Source: Bacillota bacterium (GTDB lineage Bacteria > Bacillota > Clostridia > Christensenellales > UBA1242). Taken from it: 64,000 nucleotides of DNA. The position numbers and the translations under genes are program-made. This document shows positions 49,907 to 58,454 of the stretch, in pieces. The stretch lies in assembly GCA_009784375.1 (NCBI GenBank), contig WRBV01000001.1, positions 18,546 through 82,545 of the forward strand. Reading direction: 5' to 3'. Position 1 is the first letter of the stretch. Each line of letters starts with the position of its first letter. The notes beneath the pieces were generated by a model, which searched no databases, had not been told where the DNA came from, and saw nothing but the letters and a program-made list of their open reading frames with translations.

Positions 49907-50082
49907 TTACATAACTTACAAACAAAACCTATGTGCAATCCATGGGTTTTTTCTTTGGCTTTATTATCCATCCACATATTTCGGCAAATATATATATTTT
50001 AAGACACTTTCATATAAAGATATATATATGAATGTAATCGTATATCAAGTATAATAGTAGATATAAAACTAAGGAGGTTACT

Positions 50083-50325
50083 ATGACCTTGAATGCCGCT
50101 GTTGCGAGACGAGTTGCTGGGTTACTCGAGAAACATGGGATAACACAATACCGTCTTGTTGTAGATTCTGGACTTACACACTCTGCTATGCGCTATATTA
50201 TGAGTGATGCAAAAAAAGATGTAAGACTTTCTACTATTGCAAAAATTTGTACTGTATTTAATATGACATTGGACGAGTTCTTTAACGACAAAGTGTTTAA
50301 CCTTGAAAATATTGATTTTGATTGA
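50083..50325 (+). CDS. XRE-family HTH transcriptional regulator
   Basis: 80 aa, ...ITQYRLVVDSGLTHSAMRYIMS..RLSTIAKICTVFNMTLDEFF. AGGAGG RBS. Confidence 0.75.
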   Translation: MTLNAAVARRVAGLLEKHGITQYRLVVDSGLTHSAMRYIMSDAKKDVRLSTIAKICTVFNMTLDEFFNDKVFNLENIDFD

Positions 50326-50525
50326 TGAATGAGTGCGGTTGTGGTCATGCCTGCATGAACATAACCACACGAATGAAATCAATACGGGACAAGCCCTGTA
50401 TTAGAATTCAGAATAAGTTATTTACAAATTTAATTAATAATGATATTATATCTTCTGTGGGAGATCTTTTGTAAATTTTTTGCACTACGATTGGTCGATT
50501 GAACCACTAAAGGAGTATAGACAAA

Positions 50526-53937: not shown

Positions 53938-54013
53938 GGGAACTTAGCTCAGCTGGTAGAGCATTCGGCTTACATTCGAACGGTCGGGGGTTCGAGCCCC
54001 TCAGTTCCCACCA
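53938..54013 (+). tRNA. tRNA-Val (TAC), CCA encoded
   Basis: Acceptor GGGAACT/AGTTCCC, D-arm GCTC-AGCTGGTA-GAGC, anticodon loop CTTACAT, T-arm GGGGG-TTCGAGC-CCCTC. Confidence 0.9.
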
Positions 54014-55596
54014 AACAAGGTACGTGCCAAACCGTCAAGGACGGCGAGCGTACCTTTTTCGTTGCCTATACTGTTAATAGCATTATCGGTGGTTTCCTTG
54101 TCGATGGTGATTTTGTTTCCACCACCGTTTCCGTCAATGGATAACCAAACAACAATACGGTCATCGTAAATATAGCAGGCACTTACAAGGTCATCATACA
54201 ATCGCTTTTGAAAGTCAAGGTCGGATTCCAATTCCTGTGGTGTTATATAGTCGTTTATGAAATTGATAATATCTTGGGCGGTTGCTTGGATTCCGTTTTC
54301 AAATGTGATTTGAATTTTTTGCTCGGTCAGGTCGTTTATAAGAATAGTCAACTCGTCAATTTTGACTTGGCAAGACTTTTTGAGAGTGTCGCTTTTCATG
54401 GCAACGGCTTCAATGAACGCTTGGGTCGTGTTCTCGATTTGCTTGTGTGCGATGCCTATTTGGGTTTCAAGTGATTTGATTTGCTTTTCGCCTGTGCGGT
54501 CTTTGTAATATTCAATCACACTATCGGCAATTCTGCTGACTTTCTTTGGGTCTTTCAAGTATTCCAAAATGACTGAAATTATAAACAATTCCAGTTTTTC
54601 TTTTTGTTCCAATCGCTTTTGGCATGATTTGTTGTTGTGCTTTCTCTTGCGTGAGGATCGGCAACTGTAATAGCGGTACACCTTGTCAGGTTTATTGCCA
54701 CCGTCTGCGACCATGTTGCCACCACAAAGACCACAAAAGCATTTTCCAGTTAAATAATACGTTTGTTTGATTGAGTCCTTGCGTGTGTAAATTTTGTTTG
54801 CATCCAACATTTCTTGGACTTTATCCCACAACTTTTTATCAATGATAGCAGGATATATGTTCGTCCAAACTCTGCCAAACCTTTCAAACTCGCCAATGTA
54901 TTTGGGATTCCTAAACCAGTTATCAAACAACTTGTAATCAAATTTCTTTCCCCTGTATGTAATGTTCCGAGCATTCAAATCGTCAACAATGGCTTTCTTT
55001 GGTGTTCCGTCTGCGTATCGTTGGAAGCACTCTTTTATAATTTCGGATTCCGTTTCACAAATACCGACCTTGTGGATCGTGCCTTTCTTGCCAACTTTGT
55101 CGGTGTCCGTCAACTTGAAACCATACAAGATTTTTGTGCCTAAATATGTGCCGTTTTCAAGTGCGGTTATCATGCCGTCACGAACTCGCTTTGATAATCG
55201 TTGACTGTACTTTTCGTCATTCCATTCCAAAAACATTTCGTATATTTCGCCACCTTCGTCATCGCTGACTGGCTCTGTGGCACTTACAACACGAACACCG
55301 TGATCCCTGCGTAATTGTGCTTTGTACAACATACTATCGTGGCGGTTACGTGCAAAGCGGTCAAACTTGTATACAAGGATGACTTGAAATATTTTTAACC
55401 CTGCCTCGTCAACCATGTTTTGAAATTCAGGACGGCGGTCATTCGTTCCTGTCCTTGCTTTGTCGTTGTAAACCTTTACAATCTTGTAACCCATCTTTTC
55501 GGCGTGTTCTTTACACACCCTGATTTGTCCGTCGATGCTTTGTTCGTTTTGTCCAACAGATGAAAATCTTGCGTAGATGACTGCGTTGTTGTTCAT
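54001..55596 (-). CDS. large serine recombinase (531 aa)
   Basis: MNNNAVIYARFSSVGQNEQSIDGQ (catalytic Ser region), DRFARN, recombinase domain, zinc ribbon CGLCGGNM..YYSCRS, coiled-coil C-terminus. AAGGAG RBS. The track ORF extends to 55722. Confidence 0.9.
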   Translation of the reverse strand: MNNNAVIYARFSSVGQNEQSIDGQIRVCKEHAEKMGYKIVKVYNDKARTGTNDRRPEFQNMVDEAGLKIFQVILVYKFDRFARNRHDSMLYKAQLRRDHGVRVVSATEPVSDDEGGEIYEMFLEWNDEKYSQRLSKRVRDGMITALENGTYLGTKILYGFKLTDTDKVGKKGTIHKVGICETESEIIKECFQRYADGTPKKAIVDDLNARNITYRGKKFDYKLFDNWFRNPKYIGEFERFGRVWTNIYPAIIDKKLWDKVQEMLDANKIYTRKDSIKQTYYLTGKCFCGLCGGNMVADGGNKPDKVYRYYSCRSSRKRKHNNKSCQKRLEQKEKLELFIISVILEYLKDPKKVSRIADSVIEYYKDRTGEKQIKSLETQIGIAHKQIENTTQAFIEAVAMKSDTLKKSCQVKIDELTILINDLTEQKIQITFENGIQATAQDIINFINDYITPQELESDLDFQKRLYDDLVSACYIYDDRIVVWLSIDGNGGGNKITIDKETTDNAINSIGNEKGTLAVLDGLARTLFGGN

Positions 55597-56256
55597 GTTC
55601 TGTTTCTCCTTATTTAATTTTTTTGACTGACTGGCATATTGCCTTATCGGTCTTACCCAGCCAAAAGCAAAACCCAAAATTGCAGTCAAGGGCAACGAAC
55701 TCCTGAAAAATAGACCAATCAAAATTTGACCAGTCCATTGCTTTTCGTTGTGCGTTTTACCCCTTGACGGCGGTTTTGGGTTTTGTTACAAAAATGGTAA
55801 GACAGATAAGGCAACAATTTTGATGCTATCGTAATTGCGTCCTCACCATACGGATATGAATCATGCACTTGTCAGGTAGCGACCTGACAAACCCATTGTA
55901 TTTGTCCGTATATTGAGGGAAAGGAATTTTATTGCCAGTTCATTATACGGACAGGAATCGTACACTAGTCAAGTGGGGGCTTGACTGACCCCTACTTTTT
56001 GTCCGTATAGTGAGGGGTTGCGTTTAGTACTCATCTTGTCGGTAAGGTAAGGGGAACAACTGCCAAGAGCAAAGGCATTTGGGATTTGGACAAATGCCAA
56101 TTCCCCAACTTTATGTCATGCCAATAGCAAAAGCGGTTTAGCGAGGCGAAGGCAGGCAAAAAGTGGGGTGGCTTGTCCACCCACGTGCCTGCTCGCCTGA
56201 TCCGTGAGGGTGTAAAGTATTAGTGTTACCTTTACACCCTGCATTCTATCTTTAAC
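55597..56256. other. ~660-nt gene-free, hairpin-dense segment (candidate large structured ncRNA and/or regulatory/recombination DNA)
   Basis: Long imperfect palindrome at 55641-55812. Two tandem ~97-nt modules at 55841-56017. Hairpins at 56051-56106, 56145-56197 and 56207-56240 (11-bp perfect stem). Confidence 0.35.
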
Positions 56257-57210
56257 TTGTGGATGAGTTCAATTGTCAAGTGCCACAAGATGCTATATAC
56301 TGCTTATATGTGCAAGGGTGTTGCAAAGCCATTCTTGAAATGGGCAGGTGGTAAAGGTCAATTACTCGATAAATTCGGCAGTCTATATCCTGCTGATTTC
56401 AAAAACTATATTGAGCCATTTGTTGGTGGCGGTGCAGTTCTTTTTGACGTTTTGCAAAGATTTGACATCGAACGTGCAGTTATCATTGATTTGAATAAAG
56501 AACTCATAAACTGCTATCGCTGTATTAAAGAGAACGTTGACGAGATTATGAAACAACTTGAACAAGTTAAATCAAGATTTCTTTCATTGTCGTTAGATTA
56601 TCGAGCAAAGTTTTATTTAGAAATTCGCAAACGCTATAACGAAATCAAACTTAATGGGAACTATGACTTTGAAAAAGCAGTCGATTTCATTTTCTTGAAC
56701 AAGACCTGTTTCAATGGTTTGTATCGTGTAAACAGCAAAGGTGAATTTAACGTTCCATTTGGCAAACACAAAAACCCTTGTATATACGACCGAGATAACT
56801 TGATTCTAATTTCAAAGTTGTTGCAAAAAGTTGAAATCTTGTATGGCGATTACAAGCAATGTCTTGAATATATTGGTGATGATTCATTCTTGTATTTCGA
56901 CCCACCATATCGTCCATTGACAACTTCGGCATCATTCGTTGGTTATTCGCAAAATGGTTTCAATGATGATGACCAAAGGCAACTAGCCAACTTGATAAAG
57001 GGTCTAGACAAGCAGGGGTGCAAGGTTATGCTTTCAAACTCTGACCCTAAGAATGCTGACCCAACTGACAATTTCTTTGATGACTTATATAATGGATTTG
57101 ACATAGTTCGAATCAAAGCAAGGCGAATGATAAATTGCCAAGCGGATAAACGTGGTGACATAACAGAGATAGTTGTTCGCAACTATGAAAATGGAGGTGC
57201 AAATGATTAA
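56257..57210 (+). CDS. Dam-like (D12 class) N6-adenine DNA methyltransferase
   Basis: PFLKWAGGKGQLL, EPFVGGGAV, FYLEIR, LYFDPPY. True start uncertain (TTG 56257, ATG 56290 or ATG 56308). Confidence 0.85.
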   Translation: MWMSSIVKCHKMLYTAYMCKGVAKPFLKWAGGKGQLLDKFGSLYPADFKNYIEPFVGGGAVLFDVLQRFDIERAVIIDLNKELINCYRCIKENVDEIMKQLEQVKSRFLSLSLDYRAKFYLEIRKRYNEIKLNGNYDFEKAVDFIFLNKTCFNGLYRVNSKGEFNVPFGKHKNPCIYDRDNLILISKLLQKVEILYGDYKQCLEYIGDDSFLYFDPPYRPLTTSASFVGYSQNGFNDDDQRQLANLIKGLDKQGCKVMLSNSDPKNADPTDNFFDDLYNGFDIVRIKARRMINCQADKRGDITEIVVRNYENGGAND

Positions 57211-57742
57211 AGGTGGAAAAGGTGGTGCAAATACCAAAACTGGACTTGCTTTTGAGGGCAAGACGGATCTGATTATTTTTCTTGCGACACAAACTGGCTA
57301 TTCGGTGAGTGGCGATAAAGTTTTGTTTGACAAAGAACTTGTTGCACGAGTTTTCAAAAAGCACGCTTTCTACAATGTGTTTATGAAAGAACTTGGCATA
57401 GATTGGAAAGATCACATATCGGCACAGTTACTCCCTGATAGCTGTATTTTTGTTTTGTTGAATAACACCCTATTCATTATTGAGCAGAAGCATCAAGAGG
57501 TTTCTGGCTCTACCGACGAAAAATTGCAAACTTGCGATTTCAAACGTAAACAGTATCAAAAACTTCTTGCACCTGCAAATATCGATGTTGAGTACGTTTA
57601 CTTGCTGAGTGACTGGTTTCGTGCTGACCGATACAAGGACGTCCGTGATTATATCCATAGTGTTCATTGTCATTATTACTTTGAATATATTCCACTTGTA
57701 AAACTTGGCTTGCCCGTGCCACATGGAGAGCCGAGTGCCTGA
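57203..57742 (+). CDS. putative type II restriction endonuclease (PD-(D/E)xK), 179 aa
   Basis: Sandwiched between the two methylases with overlapping stops and starts (ATGATTAA). LPDSCIFVLLNNTLFIIEQKHQ gives PD...ExK spacing. GGAGG RBS. Confidence 0.6.
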   Translation: MIKGGKGGANTKTGLAFEGKTDLIIFLATQTGYSVSGDKVLFDKELVARVFKKHAFYNVFMKELGIDWKDHISAQLLPDSCIFVLLNNTLFIIEQKHQEVSGSTDEKLQTCDFKRKQYQKLLAPANIDVEYVYLLSDWFRADRYKDVRDYIHSVHCHYYFEYIPLVKLGLPVPHGEPSA

Positions 57743-58454
57743 CAAAGGTTTTGAACTTGAAACTAACACCGTATGGAGTTTTCCTGATCGTGGTAAATGG
57801 GCAACCCACGATGCGAAATACAGAGGGAATTTTTCGCCATTCGTTGCAAAGAATATAATTCTACGCTACTCAAAAGATGGTGACACCGTTCTTGACCAAT
57901 TTGTCGGCGGTGGAACAACTTTGGTTGAATGTAAACTGAATAATCGCAACGCAATCGGCATTGATATAAACCCAAATGCTGTGGAACTGACTAAACGCAA
58001 ACTTGACTTCAAATGCGATTGCTGTCCTGATATAAAAGTCTACAACGGCGATGCAACGTGCTTCGCTCTTGATGATGAAAGCATTGACCTTATCTGTTCG
58101 CACCCACCATATGCCAATATAATTCGATATAGTGAAGATATTGAGGGTGACTTATCACACTTGCCAATAGCACCATTTCTTGAAAAGATAGAACAAGTAG
58201 CAAAAGAGTCATATCGTGTTCTCCGCAAGGGCAAGTATTGTGTCATAGTTATGGGTGATACACGTAAAAATGGAATGGTACAACCACTCGGCTTTGAAGT
58301 CATGCAACGCTATCTATCAGCAGGTTTCAAAATCAAGGAAATCATAATCAAAGAACAGCATAACTGCAAAGCAACTGGCTTCTGGAAAACCAACAGCCAA
58401 AAGTTTAATTTCTTGTTGCTGGCTCATGAATATATTTTTGTGTTTGGAAAATAA
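57723..58454 (+). CDS. N4/N6 DNA methyltransferase (second methylase of the cassette)
   Basis: VWSFPDRG, VLDQFVGGGTT (motif I), LICSHPPY (motif IV). The start could also be 57705. Confidence 0.8.
   Translation: MESRVPDKGFELETNTVWSFPDRGKWATHDAKYRGNFSPFVAKNIILRYSKDGDTVLDQFVGGGTTLVECKLNNRNAIGIDINPNAVELTKRKLDFKCDCCPDIKVYNGDATCFALDDESIDLICSHPPYANIIRYSEDIEGDLSHLPIAPFLEKIEQVAKESYRVLRKGKYCVIVMGDTRKNGMVQPLGFEVMQRYLSAGFKIKEIIIKEQHNCKATGFWKTNSQKFNFLLLAHEYIFVFGK

Follow-up and report, generated by a model that had tools for sequence, protein, structure and literature searches.

Single-stranded DNA promoters, known as Frpo/ssi, were reportedly described by Masai and Arai in 1997 in the leading regions of F and ColIb-P9, and a comparable hairpin recognised by RNA polymerase forms the minus-strand origin of f1/M13. 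In Frpo, a stem-loop rebuilds the −35 and −10 boxes and recruits RNA polymerase, and it is inactivated upon conversion to double-stranded DNA (PMC9849209; PMC11541004). The ssoA single-strand origins (sso) of rolling-circle plasmids carry the motifs RSB (TTATGCCGAGAAAATTT), in the stem, and CS-6 (TAGCGT), in the terminal loop (PMC5703833, PMC4598088). EGeRS1, from pLS20-family plasmids, is a GC-enriched region of about 600 bp with inverted repeats, a very stable fold as RNA or single-stranded DNA (ssDNA) and an unknown mechanism; it lies 5' of anti-restriction and establishment genes in several copies per plasmid, its fold has no recognisable promoter, and the transferred strand of pLS20 is the non-template strand (PMC8708921). 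In the ccrAB promoter of SCCmec, according to the passage of PMC10226514 that cites Zhang et al. 2015, a conserved inverted repeat limits recombinase expression and excision. Here we analyse positions 55597-56256 of a 64,000-nucleotide window of Christensenellales DNA (contig WRBV01000001.1), a stretch of an integrated island bounded by the beginning of a large serine recombinase (integrase) gene and by a Dam-family methylase gene. It contains a member of a widespread, undescribed family of covarying hairpins that goes with one clade of large serine integrases and has the geometry of an open promoter:

55639-55814, both strands: 176-nt long inverted repeat (hairpin), member of the integrase-linked hairpin family, on the evidence of its arms, folds and homologues.

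Like Frpo/ssi, this is a long stem-loop formed by one strand. It carries −35-like and −10-like elements, and we propose that it directs transcription along the single strand into the downstream gene, as a transient, entry-specific burst. The differences are considerable. A blastn comparison of the window region and of the hairpin of class A, one of the sequence classes of the family, with 72,556 plasmids gave no sequence homology to Frpo/ssi; the setting is Gram-positive gut Clostridia as against enterobacterial plasmids; the −10 element is TGnTA plus a C-rich tail lying in a bubble; transcription would serve a large serine integrase gene in place of ssb, psiB or ardA; and the host elements, with rolling-circle Rep genes, have no recognised conjugation leading region. 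Promoter activity is a prediction here. By its geometry the hairpin strand is the template for the integrase, and the presence of Rep and nearly all other genes of the relatives on that strand suggests that it is the one that becomes single-stranded.

The likeness to ssoA lies in an orientation-specific hairpin of about 160 nt on the displaced strand that acts as a primer site for RNA polymerase, a role that is proposed for the present family. Many elements of the relatives also encode HUH Rep proteins (Viral_Rep in class A, REP_ORF2-G2P in class E), whereas none was found in the island of the window. The antisense-strand apex of the relatives, TTTATGCC-TAACGG-GAGATAAAT, resembles RSB and CS-6, which we regard as a lead and not a match: the RSB-like and CS-6-like pieces are adjacent, whereas in ssoA they are about 50 nt apart, and the window copy lacks this apex. 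There is, moreover, no BLAST similarity to any plasmid, and the hairpin is locked to the integrase gene, in contrast to the flexible position of sso.

For the region as a whole the closest descriptive parallel is EGeRS1, which it resembles in length, GC enrichment, inverted repeats and stable folding; the window stretch lies 5' of methylases of orphan type. It differs in having no sequence match to EGeRS1 (PLSDB), in being present as a single copy in the island and in that its conserved part is tied to the integrase and not to the methylases. The ccrAB promoter, as described in the same passage of PMC10226514, shares an inverted repeat a few tens of bp 5' of a large serine recombinase gene; that repeat is short, however, and works with protein factors (SarS) on duplex DNA, whereas the arms here are 55-70 nt long, covary and have open-promoter geometry.

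A covarying hairpin family beside serine integrases

An earlier note on this DNA, made by a model from the sequence alone, had reported a palindrome of about 170 nt next to the integrase. The inverted repeat found is 176 nt long, with outer arms (55639-55657/55796-55814) that are 95% complementary and inner arms (55668-55692/55761-55785) that are 88% complementary. Two further features lie within it:

55685-55692, minus strand: CCCTTGAC box on the integrase-proximal arm, invariant in all aligned members; its partner arm is degenerate.
55713-55735, minus strand: central hairpin GACUGGUCAAA / UUUGAUUGGUC, seen in folds, with 13 bp on the minus strand and 4 bp on the plus strand.

Three G.U pairs occur in the central hairpin, only on the integrase-sense strand, and this hairpin stands in the place of an apex motif of the relatives. 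Among the loci L001-L080 that motif, ATTTATCTCCCGTNAGGCATAAA, is nearly invariant across classes A-D, at about −45 to −70 of the hairpin apex (for example L009:3830-3860); the window copy and L068 lack it.

Homologous hairpins of 150-200 nt occur at about 60 loci in Christensenellales-type genomes, 80-120 nt 5' of integrase genes whose products are 43-63% identical to the window integrase. Among 80 genome loci, nearly all of those with enough upstream sequence carry CCCTTGAC, which in most lies 78-123 nt 5' of the integrase ATG, with GTCAAGGG about 58 nt further upstream in many. After dereplication the set comprises 62 unique flanks and 58 unique hairpins, falling into about a dozen sequence classes. 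The window integrase itself is rare, with one exact cluster and one 63%-identical protein (P0002, from locus L083), followed by hundreds of proteins at 43-53%; another integrase cluster of the family, P0084, is present on 201 contigs. The closest relative, L083, has a 210-nt inverted repeat 5' of its integrase, the arms of which are unlike those of the window and yet complementary to each other. Outside these genomes, neither the window region nor the class A hairpin has similarity to annotated phages or plasmids (PLSDB and phage records); annotated phage integrases are at most 34% identical, and the closest of them (MT837820.1) has no hairpin.

The comparative evidence for pairing is strongest in class A, where 16 sequences give a consensus fold of 56 pairs with 96.8% of cells paired. 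Changes on both sides of a pair occur at 9 pairs, compared with 5.4±1.0 in shuffles (0/500 shuffles reaching this value), and the covariation score is 0.118, compared with 0.064 (again 0/500). When the 3' partners are slid, as a control, pairing falls to 35-50%. Between classes the arms have fully diverged, and yet the best partner of any left arm is the right arm of its own hairpin: leaving out the anchor boxes, the mean arm duplex energy is −37.6 kcal/mol for own arms, −21.0 kcal/mol for arms of different classes and −17.4±4.5 kcal/mol for shuffled arms. The apical stem and the small side hairpin covary likewise. The pairing of the hairpin is under selection, and chance is ruled out. The covariation and the preference of each arm for its own partner also rule out a purely duplex-DNA operator as the explanation of the 176-nt repeat. 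Homologues with compensatory changes, which the earlier note had made a test of its proposal, thus exist for this repeat, and 55639-55814 is the sole part of the stretch with wide comparative support.

A near-perfect and mostly Watson-Crick palindrome, linked to the integrase and with the promoter geometry described below, points to a hairpin at the DNA level or to a plain leader hairpin, and not to a complex tertiary RNA. An att-site mimic or a guide resembling a bridge RNA was rejected, since the relatives have no box near the 3' end of the integrase gene and no loop is complementary to the tRNA junction; in the window, CCTTGACGG recurs near the integrase 3' end. A UUCG or UACG tetraloop in the side hairpin was dropped as a hint of RNA, the register permitting only triloops.

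Resemblance to an open promoter complex

Where does the pairing of the long stem break? On the strand antisense to the integrase, the 3' arm of every class carries a −35-like hexamer (TTGACA, TTGACG, TTTACA or TTGATA), a spacer and the sequence (T/C)GnTA. In the window this unit reads:

55764-55792, plus strand: promoter-like unit, TTGACG (55764-55769), 17-bp spacer and TGtTACAAA (55784-55792), read from the sequence, with the hexamer at the start of the internal loop.

Of 15 class representatives, 13 have a spacer of 17 bp and two have one of 16 or 18 bp. (T/C)GnTA and an A at −11 are present in all 15, the rest of the hexamer being non-consensus (TAYCCN) and lying in the bubble instead of the stem. 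A clear loop is present in 46 hairpins, and in 35 of these the first stretch of at least 6 unpaired nt begins at index 24-26 (−12/−11); the internal loop measures 7-14 nt, with a mode of 11, and is followed by an outer stem of about 20 bp. In the DNA fold of the window copy, 55787-55795 is unpaired. Judged from the sequence, a −35 box and a spacer in duplex form, a bubble that extends from −11 to about +1 and a further duplex downstream resemble an open promoter complex in shape. No such arrangement is present on the mirrored arm: a sigma-A promoter directed towards the integrase from the invariant TTGACA was rejected, since 12 of the 15 classes have no −10-like hexamer 16-18 bp downstream on that arm.

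The two strands are not equivalent. DNA folds of the window copy and of 58 family members show a long, stable stem-loop formed from one strand, and with DNA parameters the antisense strand is the more stable in 14 of the 15 representatives (mean −49.8 against −47.4 kcal/mol). Its internal loop is C/A-rich on both sides and for this reason unable to pair. GNA triloops of the C(GNA)G kind are unusually stable in DNA, and in 6 of 10 variants the side hairpin has C(GAA)G, C(GTA)G or C(GCA)G as its loop when the antisense strand is read. Isolated mismatches number 50 G.U (on the integrase-sense strand) against 104 A.C, a trend that reverses once loop positions are included; the count of G.T against A.C mismatches gave no clear answer and was dropped as a strand signal.

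Replication genes in the related elements

Elements of class A encode a Viral_Rep protein (PF02407, HUH plus P-loop) and a small Sigma70_r4 protein, and those of class E an initiator of the REP_ORF2-G2P family (PF23343). The Rep and Sigma70_r4 genes are opposite in strand to the integrase at every locus where they are seen. In L199, a complete element of about 11 kb, the genes from Sigma70_r4 to Rep are all on one strand and the integrase stands alone on the other; across the relatives examined nearly all other element genes are likewise opposite to the integrase, a few elements having co-oriented upstream genes. Rolling-circle plasmids and ssDNA phages displace or package their coding-sense strand. 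If, by analogy, the coding-sense strand is also displaced or packaged in these elements, the integrase would be the main gene with its template present in single-stranded form. The promoter-like hairpin lies directly 5' of the integrase on this template, an arrangement that follows the logic of Frpo and of single-strand origins primed by RNA polymerase.

The complete integrated elements of about 11 kb include L199:742-11656, L201 and the class A loci among L008-L063. Their order is serine integrase, hairpin, small cargo, Sigma70_r4 protein, about nine unknown open reading frames (ORFs) and Viral_Rep, the cargo being MarR or, elsewhere, MerR-ABC or TetR-nitroreductase. N-terminal membrane anchors are present in three of the unknown ORFs, and one encodes a 291-aa P-loop protein; a comparison of the unknown proteins of the class A element with PHROGs gave no informative match. 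These elements are possibly an undescribed family, either temperate and resembling ssDNA viruses or mobilizable.

The host island

The genes that delimit the stretch and the island are as follows:

54001-55596, minus strand: large serine recombinase (integrase), 531 aa (Pfam Resolvase, Recombinase and Zn_ribbon_recom).
55606-55611, minus strand: ribosome-binding site of the integrase, AAGGAG, read from the sequence.
53938-54013, strand opposite to the integrase: tRNA-Val, the island boundary (cmscan), whose 3' end overlaps the integrase stop codon (54001-54003).
56308-57210, plus strand: Dam-family DNA adenine methyltransferase, first gene of the divergent operon (Pfam MethyltransfD12; NCBIfam TIGR00571).

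The integrase also abuts a tRNA in L083, L068 and L023, from which we conclude that this integrase clade targets tRNA 3' ends. An identical copy of the island, of about 11.4 kb, is found on a 254-kb contig (L084), where it ends ahead of the host Dus gene. The island begins with the integrase, the 660-nt gap, the Dam-family methylase, a 179-aa ORF, an N6_N4 methylase and a DUF5986 protein, and continues with a helix-turn-helix (HTH)-ImmA/IrrE protein, an HTH-zinc-ribbon regulator, a glyoxalase, a holin-like protein and several unknowns. A gene for replication or transfer (Rep or relaxase) was not found in it. At 56308-58454, the Dam-family methylase, the 179-aa ORF (with a weak PD-(D/E)XK hint) and the N6_N4 methylase follow an MboI/DpnII-like order. 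The second methylase of the DpnII system works on single-stranded DNA, and for this reason a counterpart here would fit an element with an ssDNA stage.

The stretch as a whole

The gap at 55597-56256 is bounded by the integrase start (its ATG is the complement of 55594-55596) and by the methylase, for which there are in-frame ATGs at 56290 and 56308, giving a full distance of 693-711 nt. The earlier note had described the stretch as free of a credible ORF, GC-enriched, strongly foldable and anomalously long, and all four points stand. Six ORFs of at least 30 aa are present, all of 34-49 aa and all on the minus strand, with none on the plus strand; none of the six has a Pfam match at E≤0.01, and a pseudogene or hidden coding sequence was rejected on these grounds. 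The GC content is 0.439, compared with 0.381 for the window, which places the stretch at the 98.7th percentile of 660-nt windows. It is among the largest gaps of the window, for which a rough ORF-based estimate gives a median gap of 45 nt; a second ORF-free gap, at 49907-50525 (619 nt), lies 5' of rplK-rplA and has no Rfam match at the gathering threshold. With z-scores computed against shuffled sequences, the RNA minimum free energy of the 660 nt is −255.4 kcal/mol on the plus strand (z −10.5) and −239.2 kcal/mol on the minus strand (z −12.2), and DNA parameters give −129.0 and −127.9 kcal/mol (z −8.4 and −8.3).

These properties do not make the stretch one RNA. At gathering thresholds cmscan found three tRNAs only in the whole window and tRNAs only in 12 related loci, and at E≤10 Rfam returned nothing but sub-threshold noise of 11-17.5 bits on the stretch. 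ROOL, GOLLD, HEARO/OMEGA, raiA and group I and II introns, which the earlier note had listed for checking, are rejected by these scans of the window and the 12 relatives. Its suggestion of a ROOL- or GOLLD-like identity is not supported, conservation also being limited to one part of the stretch, and of its larger proposal, a large structured RNA, what survives is a conserved structure-forming element outside Rfam in a tRNA-linked island, not a single large RNA. We conclude that the 660 nt are a mosaic intergenic control region of the integrated island. Beyond the 176-nt hairpin it contains the two tandem modules of about 97 nt that had been noted before, which are direct 86-nt copies at a 97-nt spacing with 73% identity:

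55834-55919, both strands: module 1, palindromic, with CTGACA-19 bp-TATATT (plus) and CTGACA-19 bp-TATGGT (minus), 17-mer TTGTCCGTATATTGAGG, z −5.4 / −5.8.
55931-56016, both strands: module 2, with TTGACT-19 bp-TATAGT (plus) and TTGACT-19 bp-TATAAT (minus), 17-mer TTGTCCGTATAGTGAGG, z −4.5 / −3.4.

In the modules complementarity is confined to the blocks containing the −35 and −10 boxes, the spacers being non-complementary. A third copy, the single module of the closest relative, lies at L083:691-793, beyond which the L083 sequence is unrelated to the window; the 17-mer TTGTCCGTATAnTGAGG is identical in all three known copies. Exact scans for TTGTCCGTATANTGAGG hit 5 viral and 104 metagenome stretches, none with a partner arm or extended similarity, and further copies in viral or metagenome contigs were rejected, these exact matches being due to chance. 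From their sequence, and on the basis of three copies, the modules look like duplicated back-to-back (bidirectional) promoter/operator units and not RNA domains.

The three hairpins of the earlier description are all present, with z between −2.3 and −4.4 on both strands, and are followed by a promoter pair:

56051-56106, both strands: branched hairpin H3, z −2.3 / −2.7, with no homologue in any fetched locus.
56145-56197, both strands: nested hairpin H4, z −4.1 / −4.4; on the minus strand an inner GGGTGG/CCACCC is followed by CACTTTTT, and the outer stem encloses both.
56207-56240, both strands: hairpin H5, a perfect 11-bp stem with a 12-nt loop, z about −4.0 on each strand.
56243-56301, both strands: back-to-back sigma-70-like promoters, TTGTCA-17-TATACT on the plus strand towards the methylase and TTGAAC-18-TAGAAT on the minus strand towards the hairpins and integrase, both matches to consensus only.

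The T-rich tail previously ascribed to H5 is not a canonical terminator tail, the sequence 3' of 56240 being GCATTCTATCTTTAAC. A terminator scan placed its sole site in the gap on the minus strand, inside H4, and a second called site within the integrase coding sequence. H4 repeats the layout of the big palindrome in miniature, with a GC-rich inner hairpin and T-run on the minus strand and an outer stem around them. On the minus strand the distal hairpins lie downstream of the TTGAAC-18-TAGAAT promoter, and together with the promoter pair they look like local transcription signals of the methylase operon and of a leftward transcript. A methylase-linked origin for them was rejected, the viral contigs having no close relatives of the methylase. 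Conservation over the whole 660 nt is not seen: apart from the module in L083, the modules and distal hairpins are absent from the family loci fetched, so that the former occur in one other contig only and the latter recur nowhere that was searched.

Discussion

We tentatively favour the view, which we hold at rather less than even confidence, that the hairpin is a site recognised by RNA polymerase on the element in its single-stranded state, in the manner of Frpo or of a single-strand origin. The strand antisense to the integrase would become single-stranded through rolling-circle replication, packaging or transfer, and the repeat would then fold. The folded stem-loop would mimic an open promoter, in which TTGACn and the 17-bp spacer are duplex, (T/C)GnTA stands where the bubble starts and a further duplex of about 20 bp follows downstream. 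Once bound to it, the RNA polymerase of the host would read the single strand in the direction of the integrase, giving an early burst of integrase mRNA, a primer for complementary-strand synthesis, or both, and conversion to duplex would switch the hairpin promoter off. What is observed is that the hairpin is conserved and covaries, that its geometry is promoter-like, that its strands are asymmetric and that in relatives it occurs together with HUH Rep genes; the identity of the single strand, its recognition by polymerase and the direction and product of transcription are what we infer from them, as is the continued use of the hairpin by the Rep-less island of the window.

Several observations weigh against this view. 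The hairpin keeps a fixed position beside the integrase across backbones, which regulation of the integrase at the RNA level would fit equally well. Class A members and L068 have good extended −10 promoters in integrase sense 45-60 nt 5' of the hairpin, so that a leader RNA containing the hairpin is probably made in any case. On the integrase-sense strand the internal loop can close through G.U pairs (helix 2), and it is there that the central hairpin of the window copy has its three G.U pairs. The consensus T at −7 is lacking in the −10-like hexamer, which is TAYCCN or, in the window, TACAAA; many class A members have a mismatch in the non-template −35 (TTTACA opposite TGTCAA), and the truly invariant box, CCCTTGAC, is on the other, integrase-proximal arm, opposite a degenerate partner. 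Nothing similar to known Frpo or sso elements was found in PLSDB or phage records. The strand that a CRESS-like Rep would displace is argued by analogy, and neither Rep nor relaxase was found in the window island or in the sequence covered for L068 and L083, leaving a single-stranded stage of the window island unproven.

An alternative that we consider possible, though on the unlikely side, is that the hairpin belongs to a leader RNA, a long 5' untranslated region of the integrase mRNA transcribed from a duplex promoter upstream, and that it keeps expression low in cis, whether by attenuation, as an RNase III-type processing site or through an effect on stability; for the window, the whole 640-nt stretch from the minus-strand promoter at 56272-56243 would be the structured leader. 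The constant distance of 80-120 nt from the integrase ATG in every backbone is as expected for a leader, and so are the integrase-sense promoters, TGnTAnAAT in class A at about 55-60 nt 5' of the hairpin base and TTGACT-17-TGcTACTGT in L068. On this strand only, in classes A, B and F as well as the L064 and L079 types, the inner stem, which is GC-rich, runs straight into 4-6 U in a terminator-like way, and the loop is G/U-rich on both sides and can pair by wobble, A/G changes opposite U being tolerated; variation in helix 2 is one-sided in 3 of 6 pairs. The G.U pairs of the central hairpin in the window are again on the integrase-sense strand, where the scan gives both the promoter at 56272-56243 and the terminator-like site in H4. 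The terminator scan makes no call at the U-run of the family hairpin because the "loop" there is a whole sub-structure. However, the U-run is absent from the L067/L045 and L040/L060 classes. The stems outside the loop are almost purely Watson-Crick, with isolated G.U (50) rarer than A.C (104), no Rfam family corresponds, and over the whole region the plus strand folds as RNA 16 kcal/mol better than the minus strand. A leader also provides no cause for a loop that starts, in all classes, exactly 17 bp from TTGACn with TGnTA on the opposite strand, and it leaves the invariance of CCCTTGAC without explanation. We rank recognition on single-stranded DNA above a leader RNA because only the former explains why pairing breaks exactly at the −10 in all classes; both may be true.

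A control region acting purely as duplex DNA, with divergent promoters and operators, would need neither single-stranded nor RNA structure: the antisense TTGACn-17-TGnTA would simply drive the divergent operon, and dimeric regulators would bind there, for example the Sigma70_r4 proteins of the relatives or the HTH proteins of this island. The inverted repeat of the ccrAB promoter is a precedent, since it represses expression according to the part of PMC10226514 concerned with it. The region does lie between divergent genes in the window and in most relatives, the element-encoded Sigma70_r4 proteins could recognise TTGAC boxes, and the modules, with promoter-like boxes on both strands and complementarity in the −35 and −10 blocks only, are as back-to-back promoters predict. 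We nevertheless judge this improbable. The spacer and 20-bp outer arms of the 176-nt repeat are class-specific and yet self-complementary, with 9 compensatory pairs, which protein binding to duplex does not demand; complementarity is broken only in the −10 region; and the mirrored arm could not serve as a promoter. Keeping a palindrome of 150-200 bp in duplex DNA is, furthermore, costly. Most improbable of all, to the point that we give it hardly any weight, is a free-standing large structured RNA of the ROOL or GOLLD kind that covers the greater part of the 660 nt and serves the mobile element in a function of its own. Exceptional folding (z −10.5 / −12.2), GC enrichment and location in a tRNA-linked island speak for it, but Rfam gives no match at the gathering threshold and noise alone at E≤10, the relatives keep only the 176 nt and the closest of them one module and none of the distal hairpins. 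The strands fold equally well, as a row of independent near-perfect hairpins without long-range helices, and the fold is equally significant with DNA parameters.

Extending the favoured view, recognition of the hairpin on single-stranded DNA, we can picture temperate rolling-circle elements of gut Christensenellales, with CRESS-like or G2P-type Rep proteins, in which the integrase, antisense to nearly all other genes, is driven by a hairpin promoter confined to the incoming or displaced single strand and is the first gene expressed after entry, and only transiently, the window carrying a divergent copy of this switch; we put this forward as a speculation that is rather unlikely to hold in full. 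If true, it would be an ssDNA-gated switch for lysogeny or integration, of a kind otherwise known only for plasmid leading-region genes. If RNA polymerase does recognise the folded single strand, ssDNA promoters and RNA-polymerase-primed origins reach beyond enterobacterial plasmids and filamentous phages to the integrative elements of abundant gut Clostridia. The hairpin would then also provide a simple coupling of integrase expression to the physical state of the DNA and mark an undescribed family of elements of about 11 kb that combine Rep with a serine integrase. If instead the hairpin acts as RNA, large serine recombinases, which see heavy use as tools of genome engineering, would have a widespread leader that regulates them in cis. 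Under either reading, about 60 loci share a common covarying element that lies outside Rfam.

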